A stretch of DNA of 64,000 nt from Escherichia coli (lineage in GTDB: Bacteria > Pseudomonadota > Gammaproteobacteria > Enterobacterales > Enterobacteriaceae), in assembly GCF_041886205.1 (NCBI RefSeq), contig NZ_CP169029.1; one strand, 5' to 3'. The notes below the pieces were generated by a model. The model did not search any database. It worked only from the letters and a program-made list of their open reading frames with translations, and was not told the origin of the DNA. Below, piece after piece: positions 24,707 through 43,339 of this stretch; positions within the stretch are counted from its first letter, which is position 1, and the number at the start of each line of letters is the position of its first letter. The position numbers and the translations under genes were made by a program.

Positions 24707-24785
24707 TTAGCCCCCTCTTAATTGCTGTTGGTCCTCTCAGATATGAGGGGAAGGGATCTTAATGACAGTCTGTTTATTATTTCAG

Positions 24786-25043
24786 TCAAATACTACCCTG
24801 TTGATGATTTCTCAGAAGCGAACTTGACTCCCAGGGGAAACTCAACTTTCCGTTAAAACCACCAGCAGACATTCGTTCAATTTCCACAGAAATATCACTG
24901 AGCCGTTCTTCAAGCTCTGCTTTTTCTTTTACCAGACGGTTATAGCGGCTTAGATGAAGCTTTTGCTGCTCCAGCCAGTCTTCAAGCTGTTCAACAGTCA
25001 TACCAGGGTTAAAAAAATATGGCTGCTGCTTTTCGCCCTGCAT
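24786..25043 (-). CDS. Hypothetical protein (first late gene; start moved to internal Met with GGAGG RBS)
   Basis: ORF-track ORF 24786-25112 overlaps predicted terminator; internal ATG at 25043 has RBS. Confidence 0.35.
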   Translation of the reverse strand: MQGEKQQPYFFNPGMTVEQLEDWLEQQKLHLSRYNRLVKEKAELEERLSDISVEIERMSAGGFNGKLSFPWESSSLLRNHQQGSI

Positions 25044-25062
25044 TATTGACCTCCAGAAAAGC

Positions 25063-25085
25063 AAAAACCCCGCCGAAGCGAGGTT
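25063..25085 (-). terminator. tR'-like intrinsic terminator with UUCG tetraloop downstream of late promoter
   Basis: minus strand cctcgc-ttcg-gcgggg followed by ttttt. Confidence 0.5.
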
Positions 25086-25130
25086 TGTTATGATTTCGTT
25101 AACGGCAGACATACAAAGCCCATCGTTAGG

Positions 25131-25170
25131 AGAATCCTAACCATATTTTTTGAAAAATGCAAGCATCATG
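25131..25170 (-). promoter_or_regulatory. Candidate late promoter (PR'-like) between Q and lysis genes
   Basis: minus strand TTGCAT - 17 nt - TAGGAT; palindrome ttaggagaatcctaa near predicted start. Confidence 0.3.
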
Positions 25171-25193: not shown

Positions 25194-25946
25194 TTATCTT
25201 GTCACTTTTCTCAATTGTGTCTCTGCATATGCTTCTTCCTGCCAGCACTTTGTAACCAGTTTATCAATGACATCTGCATATCCTTTGTACCACTGATAAT
25301 CCGTCAGGTCTGGTACCAGCTTCTGGACATGATGCCGCGCCAGTGTGGTTGGTAAACGGCTAAACCGGTTTCCATTGCAACGCCCACAAATCTTATAAAC
25401 AGGCGTGCCATGAAGCCGGGTCCTTTTTTCATCCAGGACAATACCTTTACCCTTACACCCTCTGCACGCTGTGCTGACTTCTCCCTTACCATGACAATGC
25501 TGACATAGTTCCTTCACCCACTCTTCCTTGATAACAGATTCCCCGCTTCTGGAGTGTTTCACCACTTCGCGCAATACATTATGAAATCCAGTACCAGCAC
25601 AATGCTCACAGCGAGCCTTACTTGCCGCAGACCTGGAATAATCAGCAAAGGCAAAATTCACAAGGTAAGGAATAATCTGTAGCCGGGTTTCTTCACTCAA
25701 TTTATTCAATGTCGGGCTATCCAGTGCCATCGCGTAATTGAGCAGACCTTCAATCGCAAACTGAGGATCCTGAACACCAACTTTTGCCAGGAATAAGGCA
25801 AACCCAAGCGGTGCTTTCGACTGCACCATCCCCTGCGCAGCCATCACATCCGTAATTGTTAAACCACCAGAGCCTGTCGCCGGTGCGTCATCGCTCAATT
25901 TTGGAGATTTTGGGGAGTAATATTTCGGTAAGGCTTCAAGGTTCAT
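25194..25946 (-). CDS. Late antiterminator Q-like protein (multi-CxxC zinc-finger type)
   Basis: 250 aa with four CxxC pairs; located immediately upstream of late promoter/lysis cassette. Confidence 0.6.
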   Translation of the reverse strand: MNLEALPKYYSPKSPKLSDDAPATGSGGLTITDVMAAQGMVQSKAPLGFALFLAKVGVQDPQFAIEGLLNYAMALDSPTLNKLSEETRLQIIPYLVNFAFADYSRSAASKARCEHCAGTGFHNVLREVVKHSRSGESVIKEEWVKELCQHCHGKGEVSTACRGCKGKGIVLDEKRTRLHGTPVYKICGRCNGNRFSRLPTTLARHHVQKLVPDLTDYQWYKGYADVIDKLVTKCWQEEAYAETQLRKVTR

Positions 25947-25959
25947 GCTCGTTCTCCAC

Positions 25960-26955
25960 TTACGCCAGTACGCCTATTGCCAGCGCACGATCGATAAAAC
26001 GAAATATCAGCTCCAGCTGGGAGCCATACTTCTCTTCAAATGCCACGGTATCCGCATGCAGCTCGTCGTGATGCTTTCTGCACAAAGGCAACACAAAGAG
26101 GTCATGCGCTTTTGTTCCCATTCCACCCTGACCGTGACCTATCAGGTGGTGGGGATCATCAGCAGGCTTTCCACAACATGCACACGGCTGTGTCTTAACC
26201 CAGCGCGTGTACTTTTCATTAACCCAGCGGCGACGTTTTGGGCGTAACATAAAAGACTCCGGCGACTCCGGATCCACTTTCAGCGCCAGCACCTTTTTCG
26301 CTTTATCCTGGATAATGCTGGTGGCAGGAACCGAAGGCACAAGGTCACTTTCCCGGGTGACAGACGGCACAACAGGTTTCGGTAATCTCAGTGCCTTACG
26401 GGCTGCGCTTTCAGGTAAGGCATCCGCCAGGTCATTACGAATCAGCCACCAGCACAGTTCCGGCATTGTCACGGCATGGTTATCATCAAAACCGAGATCC
26501 CGACGGACTACAGACAACACCCAACGGGCACAGTTATCCGTTGCCATTGATTCCAGCCGCTCCGTGAACTGATCACGTAACTGATTATCGCAGTGCCAGC
26601 ACAAACGGATTGCTCCCGGCGCGTGACGCATTGTGGTCATGTTCTCGCTGTGCCAGTCGGAATGAGGCCACTGGCAGCCTTTTTCACGAAGTAACCAGCT
26701 TTCAAGACATTCCACGCCACCAGCACGACGGATCACTGCCTCATTGCGGAACACGGCCCGAACGGCAGGATCATCCGCCAGCGGTTGTGATGCCGCCGGA
26801 ACGGCACCACTGGCGAAAGATGAATAACGCTCCGGCTCAGGCTCCAGCAGGACACGCCCCTGCATAAACAGGGGCATCAGCTCTGAACCTGGCCTGAACA
26901 ATACGATCCCCATACGCGGGGCAATTTCAGGGGTCAGTAGTGCTCTCACGGTCAC
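25960..26955 (-). CDS. DUF968-like phage protein
   Basis: 331 aa; C-terminal Cys/His-rich region; sits next to Q as in some E. coli lambdoid prophages (recalled). Confidence 0.45.
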   Translation of the reverse strand: MTVRALLTPEIAPRMGIVLFRPGSELMPLFMQGRVLLEPEPERYSSFASGAVPAASQPLADDPAVRAVFRNEAVIRRAGGVECLESWLLREKGCQWPHSDWHSENMTTMRHAPGAIRLCWHCDNQLRDQFTERLESMATDNCARWVLSVVRRDLGFDDNHAVTMPELCWWLIRNDLADALPESAARKALRLPKPVVPSVTRESDLVPSVPATSIIQDKAKKVLALKVDPESPESFMLRPKRRRWVNEKYTRWVKTQPCACCGKPADDPHHLIGHGQGGMGTKAHDLFVLPLCRKHHDELHADTVAFEEKYGSQLELIFRFIDRALAIGVLA

Positions 26956-26956
26956 C

Positions 26957-27766
26957 TCAATGAACGGTATCGAGCAGCTTTAACAGCTCAGGGAATCGGG
27001 ATTCGAAGAAATGCGGCTGCGTCTCGCGCGGATTTGCGGGACTGGTGATGTTCTTGCCGAACATGCAACCTTTCGCTGTCAGCGACCAGAATTTTTTGAT
27101 GTTGTTAATCGCGGTACGGCTGTATCGTTCGCGCTGCTCGACGATCCCCAGCTTCACCATCTGGTGATATGCCTGATTAGCCGTCAGGCGGATACCATAC
27201 TGTTTCAGCAGTGCACTCAGTGACAGTGTCGGGCGACTTGAGCCATCAGGCGCGTCAGCAGGAGCATCAATGGCATAGCGCGGTGCCAGATTCGGTAAGC
27301 CAACAGCCTCCTGGAGTTTCTGACAGGCCCCAAGCACAGATGAGTTAGACAGGTTTAACTCCCGACGCATAAAGTCCAGCAGAATCACACCAGCCTGCAT
27401 CTTGTCAGCAGCCTGTCCGGATAATTTTTCCGGTGCACTGGTTACCATATCGAAAGTACGGATCACCTTCAGATGGAATGACGGGCTGATCCACATTGCA
27501 TAGGCATACACCAGTTCTTTGCAGACATACGTCCCCTGGTTATTTCCGCCATTAATGACGCTAACTGGTTGATTTTGTTCCAGAGGCGTAATTCCACCCT
27601 CGGTGAAAAGTTGTTCAATCAATTCACAGGTTTGCTTATTGGAGAGCCAGTATTTCGGGCGGTTTTTTTGTTCTCCCCCGGCTGCCCTGTGCAGATCGTT
27701 CAGGCTGTAACGCCCATAAGCATCACGACGAACTTCAATACCATCAATGACCATCAGATTATTCAT
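26957..27766 (-). CDS. KilA-N domain protein (antirepressor-like)
   Basis: N-terminal MNNLMVIDGIEVRRDAYGRYSLNDLHRAAG... typical KilA-N start. Confidence 0.6.
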   Translation of the reverse strand: MNNLMVIDGIEVRRDAYGRYSLNDLHRAAGGEQKNRPKYWLSNKQTCELIEQLFTEGGITPLEQNQPVSVINGGNNQGTYVCKELVYAYAMWISPSFHLKVIRTFDMVTSAPEKLSGQAADKMQAGVILLDFMRRELNLSNSSVLGACQKLQEAVGLPNLAPRYAIDAPADAPDGSSRPTLSLSALLKQYGIRLTANQAYHQMVKLGIVEQRERYSRTAINNIKKFWSLTAKGCMFGKNITSPANPRETQPHFFESRFPELLKLLDTVH

Positions 27767-27785: not shown

Positions 27786-28175
27786 TCAGGCGGCTGCACC
27801 CGCCGTTTTCTCGTACTTACTGATAGTGATCTCGACCTTCCCTTCCGGGATAACCGGTCCCCACTCCACCAGCATTCTTTTCACCTGGCTGTCGTCTTCC
27901 CACACACCCGCGTGGGTCAGGGCGTCAAACAGCGCCTTGTTATAGTTGTCCAGATCGCGGATCCGGTTATCCGGAGGAAACAACACGATCTCCACTGAAG
28001 CAAGTACCGACGTTGGTTTTGGCAGACGACGTAACTGCTCAACTATTGCTGCGCACGCCGCGCTCTGGAATTTTCGCCCCGCCGCGCTTATCAGGCTCTT
28101 ACCAGCAAACGCCCCTTTGTTGGGGTGTCGCCAGTACGTGTTCACGCTGGGCGGAAAAGGCAGGATCAGCTTCAT
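27786..28175 (-). CDS. rusA: RusA Holliday junction resolvase
   Basis: 129 aa; MKLILPFPPSVNTYWRH N-terminus characteristic of RusA. Confidence 0.8.
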   Translation of the reverse strand: MKLILPFPPSVNTYWRHPNKGAFAGKSLISAAGRKFQSAACAAIVEQLRRLPKPTSVLASVEIVLFPPDNRIRDLDNYNKALFDALTHAGVWEDDSQVKRMLVEWGPVIPEGKVEITISKYEKTAGAAA

Positions 28176-28498
28176 ACTTTCAGGCCCCTCTCATGTAACC
28201 AGTGGGTTGCACGCAGCCTTGCGTTTTCCTCACCGGCAAGCAGTGCGCGGATAATCCCGACCGCCTCGCTGTCGTCGTCCTTCACCGCGGTATGAAGCGT
28301 TATCCCCCGGGCCACGCCACGCTTTATCGTGATGACGCCTTTTTTCTCCAGTGCGCGAAGATGCTCTACCGCTGCATTCACTGAACGGTATCCCAGCATG
28401 GTTGCCACCTCCTGATTGGTTGGCGGAAAGCCACGCTCTTTCTGATAAGAAATCAGCATATCCAGCACCTGCTGCTGGCATTGAGTTAACGTCGTCAT
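28172..28498 (-). CDS. LexA DNA-binding-domain-like protein lacking S24 peptidase domain (start at internal Met MTTLTQ)
   Basis: Aligns by eye to host LexA residues 1-70 (e.g. GFPPTNQEVATMLGYRSVNAAVEHLRALEKKGVI vs [34 protein letters not shown]); ~108 aa total. Confidence 0.6.
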   Translation of the reverse strand: MTTLTQCQQQVLDMLISYQKERGFPPTNQEVATMLGYRSVNAAVEHLRALEKKGVITIKRGVARGITLHTAVKDDDSEAVGIIRALLAGEENARLRATHWLHERGLKV

Positions 28499-28992
28499 TA
28501 CGCCCCCACGTAATTCCCTGACAGATACCACTCATCACTCGATACAGCGCGCTTGCTGCTTTTCCGTAAACACTGCTCACGACGCGCCAGAAAATTGTTT
28601 CGTTCTGGCTGGGAGTGGCTTTCACGGAATGCCGCCATCCACACCGTTGCAGCACGACGGTATAAGCCCCTGGACTCCAGTTCTTCAGCCTGGCGGGTCA
28701 GGCACAAAATCTCCCGCGGGTCGTTAGTGCCGACATAGAAATTGCGCACAGGTCTGGTTTCACGAACTGGTTGCGGTTCTGCCTCCTGCGCTCTCTCAGT
28801 CAGGCGCGGGAAATGTCTGCGTGTATCCCCTTCACAACGGTGAGCCACACGACCACTCTGACGTAACTTGCTTGCTGACTGCAGAACGCGCTGCCGTGAG
28901 TAACCTGCAAAAGCATCCGCAATGTCTCTGGAAGTACACCCCGGATGGGCTTCAATGTATTTCTGAACTTCATTCAAAAGACTCATGATCAC
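28498..28992 (-). CDS. Winged-helix + PerC-like C-terminal domain protein (possible transcription regulator)
   Basis: 164 aa; C-terminal AEELESRGLYRRAATVWMAAF resembles PerC-family motif as recalled. Confidence 0.35.
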   Translation of the reverse strand: MIMSLLNEVQKYIEAHPGCTSRDIADAFAGYSRQRVLQSASKLRQSGRVAHRCEGDTRRHFPRLTERAQEAEPQPVRETRPVRNFYVGTNDPREILCLTRQAEELESRGLYRRAATVWMAAFRESHSQPERNNFLARREQCLRKSSKRAVSSDEWYLSGNYVGA

Positions 28993-29990
28993 CCCCTGAA
29001 TCCTGCTGGGATCTGGCTGTAGTCCACGTTGTCGTAACTGGCTTTGAAGTACGGGTCTTCGCGTTTTTCTGTGTACGTGCTGACGGACGGCGATAAGCGC
29101 AGGGAAAGCTCATCCCATTTTTCCCGCAGCTTCGACGGGCTGAGCACGTTACGGCACCAGAACGGATCGCGGCTGACGCGGCTGTACATCTCGCAGATTT
29201 GTTTGTGAGTACGACCATCCTGCACACACATCAGGCGAATTTCGTTTGCCCAGGCTGTCCAGTTCGGTTCTTTGGGACGAACCACCTCGCCGTCACATTC
29301 GGCAGCCTGCTCGTACAGGGCGATGATTTTTTTCCAGAGCCACTGTGCGCAGGTCAAATCATCCTGCGTCCCCCACTGGCGCTTTTTAGGGCTGAATACA
29401 ACCGCATCAGGATGGCGAGTTAAAAAATCCTGTTCAGCCGTCTGCGTGTCCGGTTGCGAAGAGTCCGGACGAGAAGGTTTTTTATCTGACGGATCATGTT
29501 TTGATTTTACTGACGGATCCCCGCCAGATTCTGACGGGTGAAAACCCGCTTTTTTGCCAGATTTCGACGCATCAAATTTTGACGGGTCAGATTTTGATGC
29601 GTCAGATTTTGACGGGTCAGATTTTGATGCGTCAGATTTTGACGGGTCAGATTTTGATGCGTCAGATTTTGACGGGTCAGAATCTGACAGTTGAGAAAAT
29701 GCCGCTGCCTGAAGCTTCGCAACGTTAAGCTGATAAACATTCGACGCATTGCGGTTACCCTGGCGACGCGCCTTACGCGTTAACCAGCCTTCTGCTTCCA
29801 GCCGTGCGATAGCCGTTCTGACGGTACTCATCCCCGCGCCAATCTGGCGTGCAATGGTTTCAATTGATGGCCAACACACACCTTCGTCATTACTGAAATC
29901 AGCCAGGCGGGCCATAATTGCCACGCTGGATAGCTTCATGCCTGACGCAGCGCAACCATCCCATACATAGCCGGTTAATTTAGTGCTCAT
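28989..29990 (-). CDS. Replication initiator-like protein with internal iterons
   Basis: 333 aa; N-terminal HTH-like segment; central (DASKSDPSKS)n repeat encoded by tandem DNA repeats. Confidence 0.55.
   Translation of the reverse strand: MSTKLTGYVWDGCAASGMKLSSVAIMARLADFSNDEGVCWPSIETIARQIGAGMSTVRTAIARLEAEGWLTRKARRQGNRNASNVYQLNVAKLQAAAFSQLSDSDPSKSDASKSDPSKSDASKSDPSKSDASKSDPSKFDASKSGKKAGFHPSESGGDPSVKSKHDPSDKKPSRPDSSQPDTQTAEQDFLTRHPDAVVFSPKKRQWGTQDDLTCAQWLWKKIIALYEQAAECDGEVVRPKEPNWTAWANEIRLMCVQDGRTHKQICEMYSRVSRDPFWCRNVLSPSKLREKWDELSLRLSPSVSTYTEKREDPYFKASYDNVDYSQIPAGFRG
29521..29690. repeat. Tandem direct repeats (30-bp unit x3 perfect plus degenerate flanking copies): candidate replication origin iterons
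   Basis: gacgggtcagattttgatgcgtcagatttt repeated at 29581-29670, partial copies either side. Confidence 0.65.
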
Positions 29991-29999
29991 GACCGACCT

Positions 30000-30338
30000 C
30001 TATTTCCCTGAATTTACGACGAAACTGTTCGAGCGGGCTGAAGCACTCATGCTCATAGCCTTCGCGGAGGTAGATAACCCGTTGTGTTTCCGGTTCCCAA
30101 CGAATGACTCTGACGGGCACTCCGTAGTGATCTTTGAACCAGCGGTTAACTTGTTGCAAAGGACTGTCTCCTTCTGCCGGTTGAAATCACCCACAGCCCA
30201 CTCTGCAAAGCTGTGGGTTACAATTTCCCTGTCACCTGGTACATTCACTGCATAGCAATACTCCACCTTCGCTTTTCCACCCGGTACAGGAAGCGCAATC
30301 AGTTGCGAGCGACGGTAGTGTGTTGTTAAACTGTTCAT
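30000..30338 (-). CDS. Hypothetical protein
   Basis: 112-aa ORF filling gap between regulatory gene and replication gene with 4-nt overlaps. Confidence 0.35.
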
Positions 30339-31144: not shown

Positions 31145-31239
31145 TTCTGTCTCCCGTTAAATTACGTTAAGCAGAAATGTAGGATATCCAACATGCAAAT
31201 GTCAAGAATCCTACATGGGCATGTGGTAGGATTGCCTAC
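31145..31239. promoter_or_regulatory. OR-like region: 18-bp palindromic operator (31177-31194) inside PR (-35 TTGACA at 31200-31205, -10 TACATT at 31176-31181 on minus strand) plus further half-sites
   Basis: atgtaggatatccaacat operator repeated three times around the repressor gene; promoter hexamers 18 nt apart. Confidence 0.6.
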
Positions 31240-31893
31240 ATGATGAACATGAGTGATCGTATTCGCCAAAGGCGAAAAGAACTGAACCTGACACAACAAG
31301 CACTGGCTGATTTGACTGGTGTGAACCGTGTCACGGTTACTGGATGGGAAAAGGACGACTACCAACCAAATGGAGCCAACCTTCAAGCCCTAGCCAACGC
31401 ACTTAAATGCGATCCTCTGTGGCTTGTTAGCGGAAAAGGCTCGCCTGAACCAAAGATAAATCTAAAACCTGAAATATTCGCAGTTAAAAAAGTCCCCCTA
31501 ATCTCGTGGGTTCAGGCGGGTTCATGGACAATGACGGAGCCTGGTGTCAGGAAAGAAGATGCTGAAGAGTGGGTTTATACTACCGCCCTTGTATCAGAAA
31601 TGGCATTTGCACTACGGGTCCGTGGTGATTCAATGACCAATCCCCTCGGCTCACCATCGATACCAGAAGGTTCTATCGTTATCGTAGAGCCAGATATTAT
31701 TGATACAGAGTGTATTAACGGAAAAATCGTTGTTGCCCATATCAATGGTGGGCAAGAAGCGACACTCAAAAAATTTGTTGAGGACTGGCCGAACAGGTAT
31801 CTCGTCCCACTAAATCCTAACTATAAAACTATTGAATGCGGTGAGAACTGCAGAATAGTTGGTCTTGTCAAACAAGTAATAATGGATTTTTGA
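31240..31893 (+). CDS. CI-like repressor (HTH + LexA-like S24 autopeptidase domain)
   Basis: 217 aa; N-terminal HTH (RRKELNLTQQALADLTGVNRVTVTGWE); C-terminal GDSM serine and downstream Lys typical of S24. Confidence 0.85.
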   Translation: MMNMSDRIRQRRKELNLTQQALADLTGVNRVTVTGWEKDDYQPNGANLQALANALKCDPLWLVSGKGSPEPKINLKPEIFAVKKVPLISWVQAGSWTMTEPGVRKEDAEEWVYTTALVSEMAFALRVRGDSMTNPLGSPSIPEGSIVIVEPDIIDTECINGKIVVAHINGGQEATLKKFVEDWPNRYLVPLNPNYKTIECGENCRIVGLVKQVIMDF

Positions 31894-31955: not shown

Positions 31956-32009
31956 ATGTAGGATAACCAACATAAACTCTTGACACTCACATGTTGGATA
32001 TCCTACATT
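31956..32009 (+). promoter_or_regulatory. OL-like region: two 18-bp operators (31956-31973, 31991-32008) bracketing PL (-35 TTGACA 31980-31985, -10 TACATT 32004-32009)
   Basis: atgtaggataaccaacat and atgttggatatcctacat; same promoter-operator arrangement as OR. Confidence 0.6.
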
Positions 32010-32352
32010 TGTTTTTAGAGTTGTGGTGAATGCGCAGGCTGATGCGCGAAAGACATTGCAGCTATTGCGGAAAAGAGCTGTTCGGCGGGGCAATTAAACG
32101 CCCGTGAGAGTCTGAAATAACCGCAAGCCGGAGATCAGCACCGGTCACCACAACAGCCACTGCTTTGGCGGTACCAGTTTGTACACTTGCTTCCGGCTGG
32201 TACCGCTCTTTTTACAAAACAGAGAAGAGCATCACCGGACGACGGGCTCATAACCCAATCCATCCGGGCGGCTGCCACCGCAGGTGTTCTTCTCTGTTTT
32301 GTGGAGAAACCAACCGACCTTACAGGGTCGATATGATGAGGAGCAGCAAAAT

Positions 32353-35450: not shown

Positions 35451-36467
35451 ATGACAACGTTCACCGACAAAGAACTGATTAAAGAAATCAAAGAGCGCAT
35501 AGGCAGCCTGGACGTTCGAGACAATATTGAGCGCCGGGCTTATGAAATAGCGTTAGCCTCGCTGGAAGCAGAACCGGTGGCCTGGCTGCATTCAGACAAC
35601 GGCTTAGGTATTCCGGCAATAACCCGGAGTAAAAACATTGCTGACAGTTGGTTATCGAATGGCTGGTATGTTCAGCCGCTATATATAGCCCAGCCAGTAC
35701 CGGTAATTCCTGATGAGGTGTTGTCCGCAATCCGGGAGGTTGCCAGGATTCGCGCCGATTTCGATGATTTTGACGGTGACAGGCGAGGTATCGGTGATTG
35801 TCTGGATGAGGCCGAGCAAGAGCTTATCGTTACCATTAACAAATATGCCAGTCAGTTGGCAGTAGAGCCGGTAGTGCCTGCTGTTCTGGAACGTTTGCGA
35901 ACCATTGTAGCGGACCCACGCGCATTACCTCGCAGAAAAGAATGGGTTAGTGGGCAGCAGTACAGTTACGTACTTCTCGAAAACGTAGAAGCTATGGTTG
36001 ATGAAGCCTGCCACGCTGCCATGCTTCAGGGTAGCCAACCTGTAAGCCAAACTTACAACTTGCCAGAATTAATCGAAGGCATGGAAGTTTCCATTGATGT
36101 AAGCACTTGTGATGCTGATTTAGGTAATCGCTATTTCGGCACCGTCACCGAGGCGTTAGAACTTGATACAGCCAAGAATGGTTACATCCTCCTGGTTCAG
36201 GACGCAGAGCCAAACTTCGATGTAAATGGCAACTCTCCGGGAACTCCGGATAGTTGGATAAGCTGTAGTGATCGAATGCCTGAAAAGGGCCAGAACGTGC
36301 TTATTTCGGTGAATTTCGATAGCTCTCTGGTTGAACCGCTAATATGCTCCGCACGCTATACCGGAAGCACCTTTCGGCGCGGAGATGCAACGATTAAGCC
36401 GGGTAATGGTATTGAGCAAGCAACTCACTGGATGCCGCTACCGGAACCGCCGCAGGAGGTGAAGTGA
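35451..36467 (+). CDS. Early protein with C-terminal DUF551-like domain
   Basis: 338 aa; C-terminal ...ATHWMPLPEPP motif. Confidence 0.35.
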   Translation: MTTFTDKELIKEIKERIGSLDVRDNIERRAYEIALASLEAEPVAWLHSDNGLGIPAITRSKNIADSWLSNGWYVQPLYIAQPVPVIPDEVLSAIREVARIRADFDDFDGDRRGIGDCLDEAEQELIVTINKYASQLAVEPVVPAVLERLRTIVADPRALPRRKEWVSGQQYSYVLLENVEAMVDEACHAAMLQGSQPVSQTYNLPELIEGMEVSIDVSTCDADLGNRYFGTVTEALELDTAKNGYILLVQDAEPNFDVNGNSPGTPDSWISCSDRMPEKGQNVLISVNFDSSLVEPLICSARYTGSTFRRGDATIKPGNGIEQATHWMPLPEPPQEVK

Positions 36468-37039
36468 TGAACAACTTAATGATCGACCTTGAGACGATGG
36501 GGAAAAATAAGGATGCACCGATCGTTTCCATTGGCGCGGTGTTCTTCACTCCAGAAACTGGAGACATCGGACAAGAATTCTATACGGTTGTTAGCCTGGA
36601 AAGTGCTATGGGGCAAGGAGCTACACCTGACGGCGATACCATCCTGTGGTGGTTGAAACAAAGCCCTGAAGCACGAGCTGCAATCTGTATTGATGATACT
36701 TTGTCGATCAGCGATGCTCTCTCAGAACTAAATCATTTCATTAACCGGCACGCAGCCAATACGAAATATTTAAAAGTCTGGGGTAACGGGGCCACCTTCG
36801 ACAACGTAATTTTACGTGGAGCTTATGAGCGAGCAGGACAAATCTGCCCGTGGGCATACTGGAATGACCACGATGTACGCACGATCGTTACGCTTGGGCG
36901 TTCCATCGGATTCGACCCCAAAATGGACATGCCTTTCGATGGCGAACGGCACAACGCCCTAGCCGATGCCCGTCATCAGGCAAAATATGTTTCCGCTATC
37001 TGGCAGAAATTAATTCCTGCCACCAGCACAGAATTATGA
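36464..37039 (+). CDS. DEDDh-type 3'-5' exonuclease
   Basis: 191 aa; MIDLETMG (D-x-E), internal acidic motifs and H-x4-D (HNALADARH). Confidence 0.65.
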   Translation: MMNNLMIDLETMGKNKDAPIVSIGAVFFTPETGDIGQEFYTVVSLESAMGQGATPDGDTILWWLKQSPEARAAICIDDTLSISDALSELNHFINRHAANTKYLKVWGNGATFDNVILRGAYERAGQICPWAYWNDHDVRTIVTLGRSIGFDPKMDMPFDGERHNALADARHQAKYVSAIWQKLIPATSTEL

Positions 37040-37075
37040 TTTTCCCGGGTGCAGCCGGTTTTGATGGAGAAAATT

Positions 37076-37348
37076 ATGAATACCTTGTTTTTACTGATGG
37101 CTGAATTCAATACCCCTAACATTGAACTCTCAGCAGTTAGCCAAAAGTACTTTGGCATGAGTCCAGCCACGGCAGAAGCAAAAGCAAACGCTTGTAAGTT
37201 GCCCGTTCCAACATATCGCATCGGCACATCACAAAAAGCAAAACGTTGCATCAATATTCAGGATCTTGCGGAATACATAGACAAAAGGCGAGAAGAAGGG
37301 CGTGCTGAGTGGGAAAGGGTCAGAACCCATAAACAAAGGCTCATTTAA
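37076..37348 (+). CDS. Small DNA-binding protein, excisionase/PrtN-like (uncertain)
   Basis: ~90 aa from MNTLFLL; FGMSPATAEAKANACKLPVPTYRIG resembles PrtN-type HTH as recalled; last gene before element terminus. Confidence 0.35.
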   Translation: MNTLFLLMAEFNTPNIELSAVSQKYFGMSPATAEAKANACKLPVPTYRIGTSQKAKRCINIQDLAEYIDKRREEGRAEWERVRTHKQRLI

Positions 37349-37356
37349 ATAGAATA

Positions 37357-37388
37357 TGAATAAACCCATCCAAAGATGGGTTTATTCA
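37357..37388. terminator. Bidirectional hairpin terminator between convergent genes
   Basis: tgaataaacccatc-caaa-gatgggtttattca, 14-bp perfect stem. Confidence 0.6.
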
Positions 37389-37852
37389 TAATGTTGAAGA
37401 GCAGCGAGTATCAGTTTTTTATGCCGTTTAACCATAGTTTTAGATATCTCAACTGCACATCGAACTTGTCTCATACAATGATCTGTAATGCGACCTTTTA
37501 GCACGTCACCATATTGGATGGCTATTTTCTCTTTAATAATTTCAAGATCGAAAGCAGCATGAGCCTCAATGCAATTAACAAATGAGTCCCATTTAAGAAA
37601 ATCATGGTCCTCTCTATTAATTTCGACCTGACAAGCCATAAGATCATTGTTTCTCTTAATAAATTCATTTATATCTGAATTTATTAGAAGAACTAAAAGA
37701 GGTTCACAGCAAACAACCACCATATATTTTACTTTAGGTGGGGTCGTAAAATCACAATGAAGATACAATACATCACCGGGTGATATACCTCTTTCACGAC
37801 TAAAATTAGCCTTAAAATCAGGAGGGAAACAATCACCCAGCATAAGTATCAA
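37382..37852 (-). CDS. Unknown 156-aa protein, downstream partner of Panacea-domain gene (candidate toxin/effector)
   Basis: 4-nt overlap with upstream gene; no recognisable family by eye; no predicted TM helix. Confidence 0.4.
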   Translation of the reverse strand: MILMLGDCFPPDFKANFSRERGISPGDVLYLHCDFTTPPKVKYMVVVCCEPLLVLLINSDINEFIKRNNDLMACQVEINREDHDFLKWDSFVNCIEAHAAFDLEIIKEKIAIQYGDVLKGRITDHCMRQVRCAVEISKTMVKRHKKLILAALQHYE

Positions 37853-38430
37853 TATCCGTTCTTCAGATAATCCAGTATTAATTTGCTATTTTTTAGCTGT
37901 GCAACTATCGATTCCAAAGACATCTCACCATTGTGATCTGCCTGTTCCCATGCCGCGTCATGGCTCATGGTTCTGATAGCTTCAAAGGACATGTTTCCAA
38001 GCATCGCGATAGACTTATCAATACACTCTAAATCTGAGTCACTAAAAAAGTCTTCATCAGCTTCACGGCTCGGCACAATCGTCATACCTGATACAGAAAA
38101 TGCTTTTCGCACAGAATCGACATCACAACCATTAGGAATGTAACGTCCATCTCCACGAGCAATTTTTATAATATCGTATGTGTTGCTTGCTACAGGCCCA
38201 TCCTTCATAGCGTTATAGTGATCGCCCGTTATGAGGCGTCCAAAACTTTCAAGGTGAAACCTGTCAGCATAATAAAGAATTTTTCCGACATGATAGATAT
38301 CTGGGATCGGTGCTTTAGAGGCGACGTACAGAATGGCCTCTAAAGCCTTTTCTGAATCAAACCTTACATTTAGCATCAATACACCCTTCATCCAAACAAC
38401 ATCGTCAAGCTCTGGCAAATGCAACCGCAT
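37849..38430 (-). CDS. Panacea/DUF4065 (SocA-like antitoxin) domain protein; true start may be internal Met
   Basis: Segment ALEAILYVASK...VGKILYYADRFHLESFGRLITGDHYNAMKDGPVASNTY fits the Panacea signature (LQKLLYYAQ...GPV) as recalled. Confidence 0.55.
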   Translation of the reverse strand: MRLHLPELDDVVWMKGVLMLNVRFDSEKALEAILYVASKAPIPDIYHVGKILYYADRFHLESFGRLITGDHYNAMKDGPVASNTYDIIKIARGDGRYIPNGCDVDSVRKAFSVSGMTIVPSREADEDFFSDSDLECIDKSIAMLGNMSFEAIRTMSHDAAWEQADHNGEMSLESIVAQLKNSKLILDYLKNGY

Positions 38431-38549
38431 CCGCCTTCTACAATCTTAAAGTCTTCACCTACGCTAGGTCAATTGAAGTGATGAGCAAATGATGCTTTCT
38501 AAGAAGAACAGGTTCCCAATAGGCTCCCACAAAGTGTATAACTACTTGT

Positions 38550-42621: not shown

Positions 42622-43230
42622 TTACAGCCAGTCGCCGTTGCGAATAACCCCAACCGCCAGCCCTTCAATGGTGAAGCTCTGCTGACGAAGGTCAACGACA
42701 ATTGGTTTAAACTCGCTATTTTCTGGCAACAGTTCGACTTTATTGCCCTGTTTTTTCAGGCGCTTAACGGTAACTTCGTCATCAATACGTGCGACAACGA
42801 CCTGACCGTTACGTACATCCTGAGTTTTATGCACTGCCAGCAAGTCGCCATCCATAATGCCGATATCTTTCATCGACATCCCGCTGACGCGCAGCAGGAA
42901 ATCAGCATTCGGCTTGAACAAGGAAGGATCGACCTGATAATGACCTTCAATATGCTGTTGCGCCAGAAGCGGTTCACCGGCAGCCACACGACCTACCAGC
43001 GGCAACCCTTCTTCCTCTTCCTGCAACAGACGAATCCCGCGTGATGCGCCGGAAACAATTTCAATAACGCCTTTGCGTGCCAGCGCCTTCAGATGTTCTT
43101 CAGCCGCGTTTGGGGAACGGAACCCCAAACGCTGCGCGATTTCCGCACGCGTCGGCGGCATACCTGTCTGGCTGATGTGATCACGGATGAGATCAAACAC
43201 CTCTTGTTGCCTGGCCGTTAACGCTTTCAT
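42622..43230 (-). CDS. lexA: LexA SOS repressor
   Basis: 202 aa [69 protein letters not shown]... Confidence 0.95.
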
Positions 43231-43238
43231 TCCGCCCC

Positions 43239-43275
43239 CTGGGTGTATATACAGTTATGCTGTGAGTATATACAG
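43239..43275 (-). promoter_or_regulatory. Two LexA boxes (CTGT-N8-ACAG) in lexA promoter
   Basis: ctgggtgtatatacag (43239-43254) and ctgtgagtatatacag (43260-43275). Confidence 0.85.
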
Positions 43276-43339
43276 CAAAAGGCGATTTTGGAACCATAAA
43301 CTGCACAATAAACCAGAGATTTATCGAAATCTGGAAGGG

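Follow-up and report, generated by a model that had tools for sequence, protein, structure and literature searches.

A LexA-type DNA-binding protein without the autocleavage domain in an SfV-like prophage of Escherichia coli: a plausible non-inducible LexA mimic

The window analysed here, a 64,000-nucleotide stretch of an Escherichia coli genome (contig NZ_CP169029.1), contains an SfV-like prophage at approximately 1-37 kb. The early region of this prophage comprises a short LexA-like gene, whose product is best understood, judging from its sequence and predicted fold, as a sequence-specific DNA-binding protein derived from the N-terminal domain of enterobacterial LexA. Because the protein lacks the S24 peptidase domain, it cannot be inactivated through RecA. 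The proposal of the initial annotation, a non-inducible LexA mimic, is plausible and draws circumstantial support from the contact residues, the SOS-box-rich relatives and the SOS-box-headed operons. The gene as such is already known and annotated as LexA-like in GenBank and RefSeq, and represents no new entity. New here are its conserved tail hairpin, the always-lost Glu44, rusA as a conserved neighbour and the SOS-box-rich company, of which no earlier description was found as far as we searched. The gene and the parts of its product are the following, with structural elements taken from an AlphaFold2 model and its predicted local distance difference test (pLDDT) scores:

28172-28498, minus strand: LexA-like gene of the SfV orf42 / PHROG 362 family (open reading frame, 108 amino acids plus stop)
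28295-28498, minus strand: LexA-type winged helix-turn-helix (HTH), residues 1-68 (helices 6-22, 28-35 and 40-52; strands 56-58 and 66-68)
28343-28384, minus strand: recognition helix (SVNAAVEHLRALEK), residues 39-52 (S39, N41, A42 and E45 kept; E44 replaced by Val)
28274-28294, minus strand: flexible linker, residues 69-75 (pLDDT <50 at residues 71-75)
28175-28273, minus strand: family-specific helical hairpin, residues 76-108 (helices 75-88 and 93-103, pLDDT ~90)

The open reading frame (ORF) runs from an ATG at 28498 to a stop codon at 28174-28172. An alternative GTG start at 28531 would lengthen it, but is unlikely because family members begin with MTTLT. The initial annotation had aligned the product of ~108 amino acids by eye with the N-terminal domain of host LexA, which is encoded in the same window (42622-43230, minus strand). 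Pairwise BLASTP bears this out with 39 identities over 90 residues (43%; E = 1e-21), and the stretch SVNAAVEHLRALE, quoted for its likeness to the recognition helix of LexA, lies within the alignment. Residues 1-65 cover the entire Pfam model LexA_DNA_bind (PF01726; model positions 1-65 of 65; E = 3.8e-19). The S24 peptidase domain is missing, as had been noticed: Pfam returns no match to Peptidase_S24 (PF00717) in the protein, and the chain ends at residue 108. The NCBIfam LexA equivalog TIGR00498 is matched with 70.5 bits, under its cut-off of 110.95, and only over model positions 1-91 of 203. PHROG 362 ("transcriptional repressor") spans the whole protein (residues 1-108 to profile positions 1-106 of 106; E = 1.2e-59), and PADLOC gives a weak generic winged-HTH match only. 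In the AlphaFold2 model (mean pLDDT 84), the winged HTH superposes at 0.9 Å over 68 residues on the LexA-DNA complex 3jso, which is the top Foldseek match.

DNA is contacted in LexA by Ser39, Asn41, Ala42, Glu44 and Glu45 (PMC3091678), and the window protein keeps four of these five residues, with valine in place of Glu44. Set against E. coli LexA (PDB 3jso, 1lea), the winged HTH is 43-50% identical and of like fold; Ser39, Asn41, Ala42, Glu45, His46, Lys53-Gly54 and Arg64-Gly65-Ile66 are kept. The phage protein differs from LexA in the missing S24 domain with its Ser119/Lys156 pair, the missing C-terminal dimer interface, the changes of Glu44 to Val and Arg28 to Asn, the hairpin tail and the score under the NCBIfam cut-off. 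Across 13 family members compared with LexA, S39, L50, K53 and R64-G65-I66 are invariant, while N41, H46 and G54 are nearly so. The recognition helix is the segment closest to LexA in these 13 members, with a mean identity of 62% versus 40-50% elsewhere.

The remainder of the protein had been described as an unrelated tail of ~40 amino acids. It is not an arbitrary extension but a conserved, family-specific helical hairpin; searches with the tail and a tail dimer against the PDB and PHROGs matched nothing but phrog_362. A full HMMER scan of 1.84 billion representatives yielded short relatives at 40-53% identity that retain the tail, with the conserved consensus EAVxxIRALLAxExxARxRAxxxLxxxG, and the tail alone matches phrog_362 (E = 1.2e-14). 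A fused tail-linker-tail model (predicted template modelling score 0.57; pLDDT of the helices 80-86; 37 of the 104 residues in the disordered linker) is compatible with a four-helix dimer without proving one. The hairpin is, on the basis of this modelling, a putative dimerisation element.

The gene is widespread. At an identity of at least 95%, the 327-bp sequence occurs in 2232 of 5426 complete E. coli genomes (~40%), and genes in 50 phage records match its protein at 96-100% identity, including those of SfV (orf42), SfII, SfIV, cdtI, mEp460 and Shiga toxin (Stx) phages of the Stx2a and Stx2c types. Existing names reflect the same kinship: "LexA DNA binding domain protein" in mEp460, "LexA-like protein" or "repressor, lexA family" in Stx2a/Stx2c phages and "LexA family transcriptional regulator" in RefSeq/PGAP (WP_000210156). 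The gene is under purifying selection, with a ratio of nonsynonymous to synonymous polymorphism (pN/pS) of 0.05-0.32 among six E. coli alleles and with all substitutions outside helix 3. A full-text literature search found no functional study of the SfV orf42 / PHROG 362 family; it returned gp6 of the Bacillus tectivirus GIL01 and unrelated LexA-like repressors.

Relatives of the gene are surrounded by SOS boxes, which we scored with a position weight matrix (PWM) of 20 positions. Sequences compared are cited by handles of the type L008. The matrix gives 15.4 bits for the dinB box in L001 and 22.8 bits for the box just upstream of dinI in phage mEp390. We surveyed 80 IMG/VR loci, each encoding a protein of 98% identity or more, for boxes of at least 17 bits within ±8 kb. 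Such boxes are present at 61 of the 80 loci (77 boxes per 1.02 Mb), while the remaining 19 show none in the sequence examined. Among 80 control nin regions of the lambda-NinG type without the gene, a single locus carries a box (1 box per 0.96 Mb), although this contrast sets one phage lineage against another without correction for common descent. The boxes near the gene are of at least four kinds and lie in at least four separate mosaic modules; one of these kinds is situated at +4.3 kb. Three of the phage-borne boxes read TACTGTAAAAATAAACAGTG, TACTGTATTTATGAACAGTG and TACTGTTTTTACATACAGTA. The box of the KilA-N type (TACTGTATTTATGAACAGTG; 21.5 bits) is situated ~50 bp after rusA (L031 8765-8784). 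A second type (22.2 bits) lies over codons 3-9 of a late-region DNA methyltransferase in SfV, cdtI, mEp460 and WGPS2; it is present in all 80 of the closest methylase relatives, and 60 of the 62 methylase-box loci with at least 7 kb of upstream sequence carry the LexA-like gene, which varies in its distance (3.9-6.5 kb). A third type (25.9-27 bits) resides in the N-terminal half of an S24 repressor gene of the cI type and occurs also in WGPS2, mEp460 and L003. In the distant relatives L009, L011, L016 and L018, whose called N-termini are longer, a box of 21-27 bits is found 440-760 bp upstream of the gene in four out of four cases. There, it overlaps a promoter and heads an operon of the order [dinI or RecA_C-like ORF, if any]-orf75-LexA-like-orf67-[RusA]-DUF968, followed by Q where the contig reaches; in L018, the overlap is with the -10 element of a TTGAAC-17-TATACT promoter.

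Further details of these arrangements were noted. The box at the KilA-N gene recurs at +764 from the gene start in at least nine other loci, where the boxed KilA-N variant measures 275 amino acids, shares its C-terminal half with the window gene and has its own promoter-like region. The variant in the window is separated from rusA by a 19-bp gap and has no box. From its sequence context, the boxed form looks like a LexA-controlled antirepressor arrangement. Methylase boxes (SfV orf48 type) were located at L008 34170-34189, L020 11072-11091, L021 10597-10616 and L022 10972-10991; in the Stx2a phage, the ileZ and argN tRNA genes follow shortly after the methylase gene, which stands between the Q-like and late genes. 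The box inside cI (TACTGTTTTT[AC][CT]ATACAGTA; 26-27 bits) occurs in 29 of the 80 IMG/VR loci, ~160-230 bp from the start codon (e.g., L020 233-252, L021 1546-1565, L003 836-855), and could be an internal promoter or a roadblock. The heads of the operons vary as well: dinI heads the LexA-like operon in L018 (513-785), a 95-amino-acid RecA_C-like ORF lies behind two overlapping SOS boxes in L016 (4907-5262), and mEp390 carries dinI plus a umuD-like gene (L007 20396-21308). Cargo genes near the module in related prophages comprise an AcrVA2-like gene beside a Cas1-like gene (L011 9794-11390) and an RNase_A_bac toxin with a CdiI_2-like immunity gene (L009 3863-5232).

In the window, the only strong SOS boxes are the pair at host lexA/dinF, which the initial annotation had placed correctly:

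43237-43256 and 43258-43277, no strand assigned: host lexA/dinF SOS boxes (PWM 19.5 and 20.5 bits)

The single perfect CTGT-N8-ACAG of the whole window is also found at host lexA. These boxes are candidate trans targets of the LexA-like protein. Ahead of the holin gene, two sites deviate from the box by one mismatch (24725-24740 and 24770-24785; PWM 8.2) and were dismissed as chance; window-wide, such one-mismatch sites number 24 against 19.7 expected, which is no excess. An inverted repeat ACCCACAGC-N12-GCTGTGGGT at 30189-30218, inside an early ORF of 112 amino acids, is possibly a chance occurrence as well. A comparable position in SfV (L008 27357) carries CCACAG-N14-CTGTGG, which other relatives lack. 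The excess of ACAG-N14-CTGT, including this palindrome, was rejected as a lead, being not conserved in mEp390, L003 and L004. When six diverse loci were searched exhaustively for 5- and 6-mer inverted repeats, nothing common emerged beyond homologous coding DNA, nor did the surroundings of the Q/late region yield a conserved palindrome. Given the sub-threshold scores, the chance-level sites and the lack of a common repeat, we found no candidate binding site inside the window prophage, and only the host boxes are available there to the LexA-like protein.

Several points weigh against a specificity for SOS boxes, beside the lineage contrast mentioned above. No box of at least 13 bits exists in the window prophage, where the best score is 9.2. 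The matrix itself rests on 20 E. coli boxes and was validated only on the lexA, dinB and dinI boxes met in this analysis. An SOS box upstream of the gene is evidence of control by host LexA, not of binding by the phage protein. As to the contact residues, E44 is kept in none of the 13 members (V, A, T, F, L or Y occur instead), R28 is kept in no family member (Asn in the window protein), E45 is kept in nine and lost in four, and Asn41 is lost in one. In three of the four distant relatives with a box upstream (L009, L011, L016 and L018), the contact residues are altered. Such losses look like diversifying specificity, at least from the alignment. Moreover, the sole characterised precedent, gp6, is an activator of transcription and has evolved a site of its own that is no SOS box (PMC6182141). 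The box-less prophage and the altered contacts in distant members leave room for a non-SOS operator.

The gene belongs to the early-right operon of the prophage, as the initial annotation had indicated, and lies after the replication initiator and before rusA. On the minus strand, the order is early-right promoter/operators, cro-like gene, ymfL, replication initiator, PerC, LexA-like gene, rusA, KilA-N, DUF968/HNH and Q-like gene, followed by the late promoter and terminator (~25065-25150) and then the lysis genes. In the annotation of a near-identical element in NZ_CP035865, the tail is of the Mu type, the head of the HK97 type and the early region lambdoid. The features of this region are as follows:

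31240-31893, plus strand: immunity repressor with HTH_3 (PF01381) and Peptidase_S24 (PF00717)
31176-31216, minus strand: early-right promoter and operators (TTGACA-18-TACATT at 31205-31176; palindromes ATGTAGGATATCCAACAT), probable
28989-29990, minus strand: replication initiator with internal iteron array (array probable; ORF, annotation)
28498-28992, minus strand: PerC-family gene, yfdN-like (PGAP name in the identical NZ_CP035865 region; phrog_1324, E = 1.3e-76)
27786-28175, minus strand: rusA, Holliday-junction resolvase, directly downstream with an ATGA overlap
26957-27766, minus strand: KilA-N domain gene, antirepressor-like (annotation; no SOS box before the window copy)
25960-26955, minus strand: DUF968/HNH gene (phrog match and annotation; module phrog_96, phrog_127)
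25194-25946, minus strand: Q-like antiterminator (phrog match and annotation; module phrog_96, phrog_127)

The promoter and operators at 31176-31216 are, by their sequence, the probable drivers of the operon. On either side of the S24-type repressor gene, at 31177-31216 and 31956-32011, TTGACA-18-TACATT promoters are overlapped by sets of 18-bp palindromes (ATGTAGGATATCCAACAT / ATGTTGGATATCCTACAT), which probably represent the right and left immunity operators. As the LexA-like gene lies behind this repressor in the early-right operon, its product would be made only after repressor loss. The start codon of the gene shares one base with the PerC-like stop codon (TAATG; stop 28500-28498, start 28498-28496), in line with the overlap reported initially, and its TGA stop overlaps the rusA start (ATGA); both the ORF and this translational coupling are intact in the window prophage. 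PerC is nonetheless no conserved partner: it occurs only in the E. coli and L013 clades, and a functional partnership was rejected as it is absent from most distant relatives. Within the replication initiator, a tandem repeat at 29558-29681 (30 bp in 4.1 copies, or 15 bp in 8.3 copies), which encodes DPSKSDASKS repeats and is 60 bp shorter in NZ_CP035865, probably represents origin iterons. Past the Q-like gene, a promoter-like TTGCAT...TAGGAT and a strong terminator (AAACCTCGCTTCGGCGGGGTTT plus T-run) at 25065-25150 have the appearance of the usual Q-antitermination set-up; an ORF of 108 amino acids at 24786-25112 occupies the place of the methylase in related phages. The prophage is inserted in dusA, with a tRNA-dihydrouridine synthase fragment flanking the element in the matching genome (L002 6377-6481), and zur, yjbJ, dinF and lexA follow next to the dusA fragment (window ~35451-38500). 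It is due to this integration that the LexA-like gene lies 14 kb from host lexA; a functional meaning of the distance was therefore rejected and the proximity is treated as coincidence.

Among relatives, the conserved neighbour is rusA, which lies next or next-but-one downstream in eight out of nine distinct phage contexts and is directly adjacent in six. The order LexA-like gene to RusA holds in L003-L006, L007, L008, L009, L011, L013, L014 and L016. A 4-nucleotide overlap joins both genes in the window, SfV, mEp390, WGPS2, mEp460, cdtI, L003, L004 and L014; L011 has a 2-nucleotide gap, L009 and L016 have one small ORF in between, and L013 has a short insertion. In L018, the LexA-like gene is present and rusA absent. 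DUF968 and a Q-type antiterminator come after rusA, and the replication genes upstream vary in type. According to BLASTN, the window, SfV, mEp460, cdtI and WGPS2 have one block in common, perC to DUF968 (window 29064-25964), and are different in their immunity and Q regions. The LexA-like protein is 97-100% identical across phages with these different immunity and Q regions, so that a fixed target would have to lie either in the host or in the small block common to these phages.

We tentatively propose, with a confidence just short of even, that the LexA-like protein is an uncleavable repressor of the SOS-box type, produced from the early-right operon after induction. DNA damage would destroy host LexA as well as the S24-type repressor of the prophage; the early-right operon would fire, and the LexA-like protein would be made along with the replication protein, PerC, RusA, KilA-N and Q. 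It would pair through its C-terminal hairpin, and the dimer would re-occupy CTGT-type SOS-box operators on the host chromosome and, in most related phages, also the phage boxes before KilA-N, at the 5' end of the methylase and inside the cI-type gene. In this way, the phage would close LexA-controlled promoters again in a manner insensitive to damage. That such a damage-proof LexA stand-in re-closes host and phage SOS boxes, shuts SOS off and times phage expression is possible, and we advance it with caution.

The main alternative is a phage-specific regulator with its own non-SOS operator, acting as activator or repressor of a phage promoter in the way gp6 acts at P3. The precedent of gp6, a protein of the LexA N-terminal domain only that activates P3, speaks for it, as do the family-wide loss of E44 and R28, the variation at positions 42 and 45, the conserved linkage to the RusA-DUF968-Q module and the window prophage without an SOS box. 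However, no inverted repeat is common to the six diverse loci, the ACAG-N14-CTGT palindromes are not conserved, an identical protein accompanies differing immunity and Q regions, the common module has almost no non-coding DNA, and the Q-like antiterminator with its promoter and terminator already gives late control. We regard this alternative as rather unlikely. The gene might also be a passenger in the window prophage, that is, a functional family member that has lost its phage-borne targets and has little effect here. The KilA-N, methylase and cI boxes are indeed all missing, and box-bearing phages such as L031 carry copies of the gene with 100% identity; yet the intact ORF and coupling, the host SOS boxes that are still available and the frequency of box-less carriers (19/80 loci) make this improbable.

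The position beside rusA suggests another role, that of a DNA-binding protein assisting replication or recombination together with RusA, and not that of a transcription factor. Adjacency with a 4-nucleotide overlap or 2-nucleotide gap in six of the nine contexts and proximity in two more would fit, as would the invariable position after the replication genes and a weak Pfam match to DnaD_N (E = 0.23). Gene overlaps are, however, the norm in phage operons, L018 carries the gene without rusA, the conserved surface is the base-reading helix of LexA, and we know of no precedent for such a RusA partner, so that little credence is given to this role. Finally, the tail could imitate the hinge/cleavage region of LexA (..RALLAGEE.. 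versus ..RVAAGEP..) and contact S24 proteases or RecA. The alignment to LexA reaches residue 90 (BLASTP, HMMER), and the AGE of the tail stands opposite Ala84-Gly85-Glu86 of LexA in the E. coli clade. Mimicry of the cleavage site was nonetheless rejected and is very improbable, as AGE is absent from most distant members and the segment is predicted to be helical, with no extended loop.

Among known systems, the uncleavable repressor proposed here resembles gp6, a truncated LexA homologue that binds GaCACAnnTGTGaC and activates the late promoter P3 (PMC6182141). Both are phage-encoded LexA DNA-binding domains without a cleavage domain, located in an early operon. They differ in that gp6 has 66 amino acids, no tail and a non-SOS palindrome, while the LexA-like protein adds a helical tail of 33 amino acids; gp6 also belongs to another phage type and another host phylum. 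No BLASTP alignment between the two was obtained at E values up to 100, and they are independent derivations. SfV orf42, mEp460 gp46, cdtI orf48 and Stx2a_WGPS2 gp21 are the same protein (96-100% identity) upstream of rusA; compared with those phages, the window lacks dam between perC and the gene and lacks their phage-borne SOS boxes. LexA(Ind-) mutants such as G85D and S119A (PDB 1jhf, 1jhh) are non-cleavable. These mutants and the LexA 1-84 fragment offer a functional analogy, as a LexA DNA-binding module that RecA cannot remove. Nonetheless, the former are laboratory mutants and the latter is a short-lived degradation intermediate, whereas here a separate, selected phage gene has its own putative oligomerisation element.

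If the protein did have its own operator, it would be the second independent phage conversion of the LexA DNA-binding domain to a private regulator, after gp6. If it does bind SOS boxes, many E. coli prophages, those of Stx phages included, could re-silence the SOS regulon in damaged cells, which would affect mutagenesis, the induction of co-resident prophages and the release of colicins and toxins. Such binding would explain why these phages, unlike lambda-type phages, are rich in LexA boxes, and would amount to a widespread function for shutting off SOS, encoded by Stx2 phages and by ~40% of E. coli genomes.

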